Virus record (IMG/VR): IMGVR_UViG_2671180524_000011
Length of the DNA stretch: 21,898 nucleotides
Reading direction: 5' to 3' (one strand)
Origin: a virus
Lineage: Duplodnaviria; Heunggongvirae; Uroviricota; Caudoviricetes
In this document: piece after piece, positions 21,001 through 21,898 of the stretch
How positions within the stretch are numbered: the stretch's first letter is position 1
Layout: every line of letters starts with the position of its first letter
Position numbers: made by a program

Positions 21001-21898
21001 TTGCGAAGTTTCTTTTCGCACTCGATGAAGTATCTGCGTATCTGTCGGCCTTTTTCGTTACGCTCTACCATCGCCGTTTCTTTGGCTGTATCGAGGGTAA
21101 GGTGGTAGTCTTTTTTCCCTCGCCCATAACCTATTTCCCGTTTCTGGGAAATAGCTATATAGTCCTGATTTTCAACGAATCCGTACTCTTCAATACGTTC
21201 TGTAATCCACGATGCAAAGCGTTTACCTACTCCAAGAAAAGTATGTAAATCACGGGCATTAACGAGAAGAGTGGTTTCGTTGGCGATAGTGCCGTTGAAT
21301 ACGGGGATGCGTTGACTGGTCATGATGACCTCCTTATTTGTTTAGTTTATAACCGCCAGTTAGTAGCTGGCGGTCGGGTGTCAACTGAGCCAAATAAGAA
21401 GCTCTGGGCATATTCCCCTTGCGGGTGTTGTATTACGCCTCTCCACCCGACCTTTGTACGGATGTAACTATGCCAAATTGCAGGCATAAAAAAGCCGCAA
21501 AGCTATCGGGTGCGGAGACCGCTTATTTGTTCAGTGCGGTCAGTATGCGATAGCTCTGGAGGATTTGTCAATCAGCGGAATATTGATGAACGGGTAACGG
21601 TAAATGCCTCATCCAGAAAATTAACGCAAATTCGCATCGCAAACTTGCGTTAATTATCTGAAATATCAAGTTAAATCCCCTTAAATGTTTGGGGCACTAT
21701 TGGGGCAAAATGTGGTTGTTTGGGGCACTATTGGGGCAAAATGTGGTTGTTTGGGGCATATTTGGGGCAAAAAAGAACGTATAAAGAACGGTGTAAAATT
21801 GATTTCTTCATGGTCAAAATGAGGTGTAACAGATTGAAAAATATATGCTCTTGGACGATCTTCGGTAATTCTGTGTTTTTAATGCTTCATGGTTTCAA

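Follow-up and report, generated by a model that had tools for sequence, protein, structure and literature searches.

The window, which is the whole stretch of 21,898 nucleotides analyzed here (IMG/VR record IMGVR_UViG_2671180524_000011), comes from a phage of the Caudoviricetes. Its last 499 bp match both the right end of phage 933W (AF125520) and Stx2 converting phage I (AP004402) at 100% identity; the identity to VT2-Sakai is 99.6%, except for one 31-bp unit that is missing there. The window and 933W are not colinear: no match to the first 228 bases of the window was found at the expected 933W coordinates, and the alignment has gaps at about 18449-18500 and about 20029-20425, followed by 98.6% identity over positions 20425-21898. 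As judged from these alignments, the source is a 933W-like mosaic Stx phage and not 933W itself.

The window ends in the crossover core GTTTCAA (21892-21898, plus strand), which is annotated as 'attR core' in AF125520 and at which host junctions were seen. In lysogens the host wrbA sequence comes next after the core, and in VT2-Sakai the split wrbA gene is joined at this point. On the phage side, an antirepressor-like gene with AntA and P22_AR_C domains occupies 20694-21323 on the minus strand. Just upstream of this gene, a full-length Rfam match to sRNA-Xcc1 (RF02221) was found at 21364-21452 on the minus strand (69.1 bits against a gathering score of 53, E = 1e-11), and the segment 21400-21575, which overlaps the match, occurs alone in many E. 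coli genomes without the rest of the attP arm. Another Rfam match, to the sok antitoxin RNA (18532-18706, minus strand, 113.5 bits), is the known hokW/sokW toxin-antitoxin locus annotated in 933W.

Between the antirepressor-like gene and the core lies an array of six exact copies of the octamer TTGGGGCA on the plus strand, which start at 21689, 21700, 21720, 21731, 21751 and 21762 and span 21689-21769. The start-to-start spacing is 11, 20, 11, 20 and 11 bp. No copy was found outside the array in the 21.9-kb window, for which the chance expectation is 1.19 copies, and six copies were reached in none of 100 dinucleotide shuffles. Tandem Repeats Finder reported a period of 31 bp at 21686-21772 (2.8 copies, 96% matches), and the same plus-strand repeat of 2.8 units (TGTTTGGGGCACTATTGGGGCAAAATGTGGT) was recovered by a repeat search, in which units 1 and 2 were identical and unit 3 was 71% identical over the whole unit with both boxes kept. 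The boxes thus come as three pairs on the plus strand: a distal double box TTGGGGCActaTTGGGGCA at 21689-21707, which is absent from two-unit alleles such as that of VT2-Sakai, a middle double box of the same sequence at 21720-21738, and a core-proximal double box TTGGGGCAtatTTGGGGCA at 21751-21769. A preliminary description of this DNA had reported six identical octamers at alternating 11- and 20-bp spacing within 31-bp repeats, and the exact positions and Tandem Repeats Finder agree with it. It had also placed the array about 370-450 bp upstream of the antirepressor-like gene; the measured distance from the start codon is 365-452 bp.

The array is separated from the crossover core by 123-203 bp, on the phage side; arm-type sites of the lambda kind would be expected within attP on this side, at tens to about 200 bp from the crossover. 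Since the window end is the annotated attR core and the boxes lie at this distance from it, the array is in the P arm of attP, which in the prophage is the phage-side arm of attR.

The 499-bp end segment was present in 382 of 5426 complete E. coli genomes, with a median of one place per genome, and RefSeq annotation had no feature under its matches in E. coli. In all three E. coli records whose context was opened, the array segment was at a prophage end. A common host repeat, which the preliminary description had named as a possibility that would speak against its reading, would, if of the REP/ERIC type, have many dispersed copies per genome outside prophages; it was rejected because of this median of one place per genome and the location at a prophage end in the three records. 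The description had likewise considered that the repeat might lie within a coding region. Units 1 and 2 do not, and unit 3 is covered by an ORF, ORF-43, in AP004402 alone. We rejected ORF-43 as a gene, because it spans the crossover core, would be destroyed by integration, and is unannotated in 933W and VT2-Sakai. Its sole family match, from end to end, was to a PHROG of unknown function, which we take to consist of calls of the same ORF in near-identical phages. In a variant allele, ORF-43 carries five substitutions, 2 synonymous and 3 non-synonymous (a small sample), and in one allele the ATG is changed to GTG.

A further double box across the crossover core

In circular AP004402, int is transcribed toward the core and its stop codon lies 22 bp beyond the core; an excisionase-like gene comes after int. 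Within the last 20 codons of int lies a fourth double box, TTGGGGCAcgtCTGGGGCA, oriented like the pairs of the array and set in their 11-bp register. This P' pair is about 65-83 bp past the core and overlaps the int end. The 20-nt P' double box of AP004402, TTTGGGGCACGTCTGGGGCA, is across the core from the core-proximal P pair, at a distance of 211 bp. The repeat search placed the 20-nt double boxes in one family of three P members and one P' member (85% identity), with spacings of 31, 31 and 211 bp. The preliminary description had suggested a search for further copies of the octamer, and that search found one outside the window: the complete 933W genome contains seven exact copies of TTGGGGCA, six in the array and one in the P' arm.

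By simple arithmetic, the chance of such a pair occurring within 300 bp of the core is about once per million. No box was found within the core GTTTCAA region, and the P and P' arms share a consensus that is distinct from the core sequence, as is the rule for arm-type sites. The P' boxes, at 3563-3581 of L001 (at the int 3' end and outside the window) and in relatives, also encode the conserved C-terminal peptide of this integrase family, F-A-P-x-(M/L/V)-P-(Q/H), which arises simply because each of the two boxes is translated in its own codon phase. The preliminary description had left the target gene of the array as unknown. The target would be a recombination site and no gene, as the window ends at the attR core and the double box recurs across it.

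It was proposed that the array is bound cooperatively by a replication initiator or a transcription factor. If the array were an operator or enhancer through which a transcription factor controls the antirepressor-like gene, or the intervening sRNA-like element, its position upstream of that gene and a promoter-like site at 21571-21542 on the minus strand would fit. However, the neighbors of the array vary among phages and include a LexA-regulated dinI-like gene in VT1-Sakai, umuD-like gene ends, and a truncated ant pseudogene in 2014C-3057. In addition, the boxes recur inside the int 3' end at a fixed distance across the core, which is unexpected for a gene-specific operator. Control of the antirepressor-like gene by a transcription factor bound here is unlikely, since the boxes accompany int and the att core and not the gene, and we consider an operator at this place highly improbable.

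Another reading takes the array as replication-origin iterons to which an initiator protein binds; it resembles such iterons in its phased short direct repeats followed by an A-rich stretch. This likeness is one of appearance alone. The lambda-type origin of 933W is annotated elsewhere, where six 18-bp O-protein iterons (ATCCCTCAAAACGAGGGA) lie within gene O (13904-14027). A replication initiator is a poor fit because these iterons are inside gene O and unrelated in sequence, and because there is no DnaA box (TTWTNCACA) near the array, the last 3.7 kb of the window having been scanned. No initiator gene adjoins the array, and integration splits the array from int, which fits an att site and not an origin. 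That the array is a replication origin is hardly credible. From the original proposal, the phased short boxes for one protein can be kept, but neither an initiator nor a transcription factor is the likely binder.

Conservation of the paired boxes and number of units

Relatives were picked on Int protein similarity alone. The pair NTGGG(G/A)CA-N3-NTGGG(G/A)CA, which lies at the int 3' end and reads on the opposite strand from int, was kept in 28 of the 28 loci examined. All viral-contig relatives whose Int is 68-73% identical retain it in many DNA backgrounds; it is also present in Yersinia phage YP3 (Int 62%), VT1-Sakai (66%) and a Rac-like prophage (43%), and it persists with PF12167 integrases as low as 28% identical. 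The paired NTGGGGCA boxes are thus retained with Int proteins of 28-73% identity and with different cores (wrbA, yehV, next to ttcA, and others).

In most relatives the P' boxes form part of a coding sequence, so that some of their conservation could be at the protein level. In 26 distinct int 3' ends, the entropy of third codon positions was 0.09 bit inside the boxes and 1.21 bit at 23 such positions upstream. The two P' boxes are 11 nt apart and hence fall in different codon phases, and in the Rac-like relative the boxes are located 13-24 nt past the int stop codon and are non-coding. The synonymous-site result and the non-coding Rac-like case disfavor a protein-level explanation. As the synonymous sites are frozen, the codon phases differ, and the Rac-like boxes follow the stop codon, the sequence comparison indicates that the constraint on the P' boxes acts on DNA.

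The P arm was also compared among the relatives. VT1-Sakai has ATGGGGCAtcaATGGGGCAtgtATGGGACA at the other end of the prophage. The diverged P arms of L211, L234, L243 and L089 each contain two pairs in which the boxes are intact and the spacers and the intra-pair trinucleotide are altered. In eight attP sites with different cores, the distance from the core-proximal P pair to the P' pair was 211, 211, 207, 209, 208, 209, 210 and 206 bp, and this range of 206-211 bp is about 20 helical turns.

The number of 31-bp units varies. Two units were present in 20 of the 24 full-length E. coli matches sampled and three units in the other 4; the corresponding counts for 10 viral contigs were seven and three. 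Because both two-unit and three-unit alleles occur in lysogens, one unit is dispensable, and the extra pair is probably redundant or merely modulatory. It is also conceivable that one P-arm pair is functional and that the remaining units are neutral slippage products of the tandem repeat. The natural two- and three-unit alleles would be explained in this way, as would the identity of units 1 and 2, which points to recent duplication, and several relatives (L194, L199 and L225) have a single P-arm pair. However, no one-unit 933W-type arm (nor any four-unit arm) was seen among the 24 E. coli matches and 10 viral contigs, and the distant L211, L234, L243 and L089 keep two pairs with intact boxes although their spacers have diverged. 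The absence of one-unit alleles from the sample and the retention of two pairs in distant relatives argue for selection on at least two pairs, and we regard neutral slippage as an unlikely account of the remaining units.

Candidate arm-type integrase sites and accessory elements

The integrase encoded across the core has 444 aa. It carries an Arm-DNA-bind_2 domain (PF12167) at residues 15-78 (E = 6e-26), followed by a Phage_integrase catalytic domain (PF00589). A sequence search of solved structures with Int gave catalytic-domain matches alone, with no solved arm domain of its family. The gene upstream of int encodes a putative DUF1233 excisionase. According to Smyshlyaev et al. (2021, PMC8138268), the integrases of Stx2a phage, Gifsy-2 and BPP-1 form an arm-binding 'IntBPP-1' subgroup defined by this domain. 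In lambda, arm-type sites on both arms of attP are bound by the N-terminal domain of Int, and bending proteins join the arms and the core (PMC4880445). Since an integrase with an arm-binding domain needs arm sites, such sites are expected here, and in the sequences compared no motif other than the boxes is both repeated on the two arms and kept in relatives. We infer that the six TTGGGGCA boxes are very probably arm-type Int-binding sites in the P arm of attP of a 933W-like Stx phage, and the distal and middle double boxes are proposed as such sites along with the core-proximal one.

The boxes could instead be sites for the excisionase (RDF, DUF1233), which would form a head-to-tail polymer on the direct repeats and bend the P arm during excision. 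Winged-helix excisionases typically bind direct repeats that lie close together in the P arm, of which X1/X1.5/X2 of lambda are an example (PMC4880445). The DUF1233 gene adjoins int, and similar small genes precede int in several relatives. Because DUF1233 co-occurs with many of these integrases, co-conservation does not fully separate Int from Xis. Nevertheless, the same double box is on both sides of the core, whereas excisionase sites of the lambda paradigm are on the P arm alone; RDF repeats would be expected on a single arm only, in the stretch from the core to the arm-type sites. The boxes also persist with Int proteins of 28-33% identity, two of three of which have no ORF of at least 45 aa within about 200 nt upstream of int, and they occur beside Firmicutes-type integrases as well. 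Moreover, the Int arm-binding domain would otherwise be left with no candidate sites. We consider it quite improbable that the boxes are excisionase sites.

If the boxes are arm-type sites, the small N-terminal arm-binding domain of Int would bind the (T/A)TGGGGCA boxes, and the C-terminal part would bind and cut the core GTTTCAA. A pair at 11 bp would seat two Int N-domains abreast on one helix face. The 31-bp period, about three turns (2.95 at 10.5 bp per turn), would place successive pairs on the same face, and gain or loss of a unit would shift the sites by whole turns with the helical phase unchanged. The DNA would be bent between the arms and the core, and Int subunits would bridge arm and core sites in an integration/excision complex as in lambda. 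A scan of attP with the strict IHF consensus (WATCAANNNNTTR) gave no match.

By analogy with lambda, integration and excision may draw on different subsets of the P-arm pairs, of which the proximal one, with its kept distance of 206-211 bp, may be the pair that is indispensable. We infer both the Int N-domain as the binder and the assignment of pairs to integration or excision. The boxes total eight and an integrase tetramer has four N-domains; some boxes would therefore be redundant or used alternately.

Several other elements in attP are candidates for accessory sites. On the core side of the array, AAAGAACG occurs twice with 11-bp spacing at 21772-21790 (plus strand; repeat search), is partly kept in relatives, and is possibly a site for an accessory protein such as the excisionase. 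Alignment of the relatives further revealed GCTCTTGGACGATCT at 21847-21861 on the plus strand, 31-45 bp from the core. This P-arm element, followed by GATTTT..AAAA, is conserved in P arms with different cores and attB sites (VT1-Sakai, L089, L155, L211, L234 and L243); it did not match the IHF consensus and may be an accessory-protein site. The motif TTGAAAAATATA is present on both sides of the core and could be an accessory-factor site.

A 23-nt direct repeat was also observed on either side of the core. Its copies, GGTGTAACAGATTGAAAAATATA at 21823-21845 of the window and GGTTTATCATTTTGAAAAATATA at 3515-3537 of L001, are 83% identical and 91 bp apart, and they are possibly a second symmetric class of accessory site in attP.

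Beside the array, the preliminary description had noted an inverted repeat with 9-bp arms, which was found as TTAACGCAA and TTGCGTTAA at 21621-21629 and 21645-21653. The repeat is longer than 9 bp, with arms of 22 nt that are 86% complementary and 3 nt apart. On the minus, int-sense strand it is part of a predicted 23-bp hairpin at 21612-21662, with a stem of 6 + 17 bp and a 3-nt loop (fold z = -5.5 against shuffles). The G.U pairs of the minus strand would be A.C mismatches on the other, and the U-rich UUUUCU runs from the 3' end of the inner stem into the beginning of the outer one. A variant allele has one compensatory G-C to A-U double change, one pair gained and one pair lost. Located downstream of int and attP, some 230-280 bp past the attP core, the hairpin is a candidate for a terminator or an RNase III site; the lambda sib/tI retroregulator has a similar position. 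A terminator scanner did not flag 21612-21662, probably because the 9-bp arms were read with a loop over its 8-nt limit.

The assignment of the boxes would give a testable map of attP for the main Stx2 phage family, consisting of the core, three to four double arm sites, conserved accessory elements, and a fixed spacing of about 209 bp between the arms. Such a map would be useful for integration vectors at the wrbA site, for interpreting copy-number differences among outbreak strains, and for finding prophage ends by sequence. We also considered a broader proposal, in which the number of units (two or three pairs) tunes integration and excision of the Stx prophage and the paired TGGGGCA is a deep code shared by IntBPP-1 and the Firmicutes IntTn916-like integrases. 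We hold the two parts together only tentatively, with the balance leaning against them. If they are true, unit number would be a natural dial on lysogeny and toxin-phage release, attP arms would be predictable from sequence by the paired code (11-bp register and about 209 bp between arms), and the shared code would explain why such pairs are reported as 'att sites' of streptococcal prophages.

Comparison with known systems

The integrase here shares the defining PF12167 (DUF3596) domain with the IntBPP-1 subgroup (BPP-1, Stx2a phage and Gifsy-2), for which the source paper classifies the proteins and gives no arm-site sequence in its accessible passages (PMC8138268). Our literature searches found no paper combining '933W' and 'arm-type' and none on the arm-type sites of 933W-type integrases. 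Searches on the Rac IntR arm sites and on the octamer returned nothing on these sites, the octamer giving mostly noise and a streptococcal table. In the literature searched, an arm-site description for 933W-type Int was thus not found, and the paired TGGGGCA with the inter-arm spacing of about 209 bp comes from the present analysis.

The same paired box, (A/T)TGGGGCA-N3-(A/T)TGGGGCA, was observed beside Firmicutes-type tyrosine integrases of the viral contigs L108, L125, L126, L165 and L240, 21-25 bp past their stop codons; these proteins share only about 20% identity with 933W Int. In L125 the paired box is on both arms, 192 bp apart. In a study of Streptococcus agalactiae prophages, TTATAGTTGGGGCGAATTTGGGGCATAA is given as the 'attachment site' of several prophages (PMC11357604). 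By its sequence, TTATAGTTGGGGCGAATTTGGGGCATAA looks like an arm box of the TGGGGCA-pair kind and not like a crossover core.

The DNA of the array is the same as the repeat_region annotated 'arrangement g / gg; region III' in AP004402 and in the Stx1 and Stx2-II phages NC_004913 and NC_004914. Its depositors recorded it as a repeat present in different copy numbers among Stx phages, and the annotation has no function, no link to att, and no mention of the copy in int. The 'arrangement g' annotation goes back to Sato et al. (2003). The present reading would supply a functional label for a repeat that Stx-phage GenBank records mark just as 'arrangement g/gg'.

The array resembles lambda-type O-protein iterons in having helically phased direct repeats suited to cooperative binding by one protein. 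The two differ in that the 933W iterons are 18-bp palindrome-like units in gene O, whereas the array is at the prophage end by the core.

The three P' sites of lambda follow one another at intervals of about one helical turn, as do the boxes within the 11-bp pairs here; its arm sites are at comparable distances from its core, and int also ends beside the P' arm. The arm-site consensus of lambda is of the CAGTCACTAT type, whereas that of the 933W-type attP is TGGGGCA. The lambda attP sites P1, P2, P'1, P'2 and P'3 are, like the boxes described here, short repeats far from the core on both arms, and those of lambda are bound by the Int N-domain (PMC4880445). The 933W-type attP differs from that of lambda in having six to eight sites, compared with five, which are paired and all in one orientation. 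Its P-arm pairs form a variable-number 31-bp tandem repeat, its P' pair overlaps the int coding sequence, and the arm-binding domain of its integrase belongs to a different Pfam family (PF12167). The array is most likely an ordinary element, neither a replication origin nor a gene switch. The kind of element is a textbook one, as in lambda P1, P2 and P'1-3, and the arrangement is the lambda scheme with another box sequence and no new mechanism.
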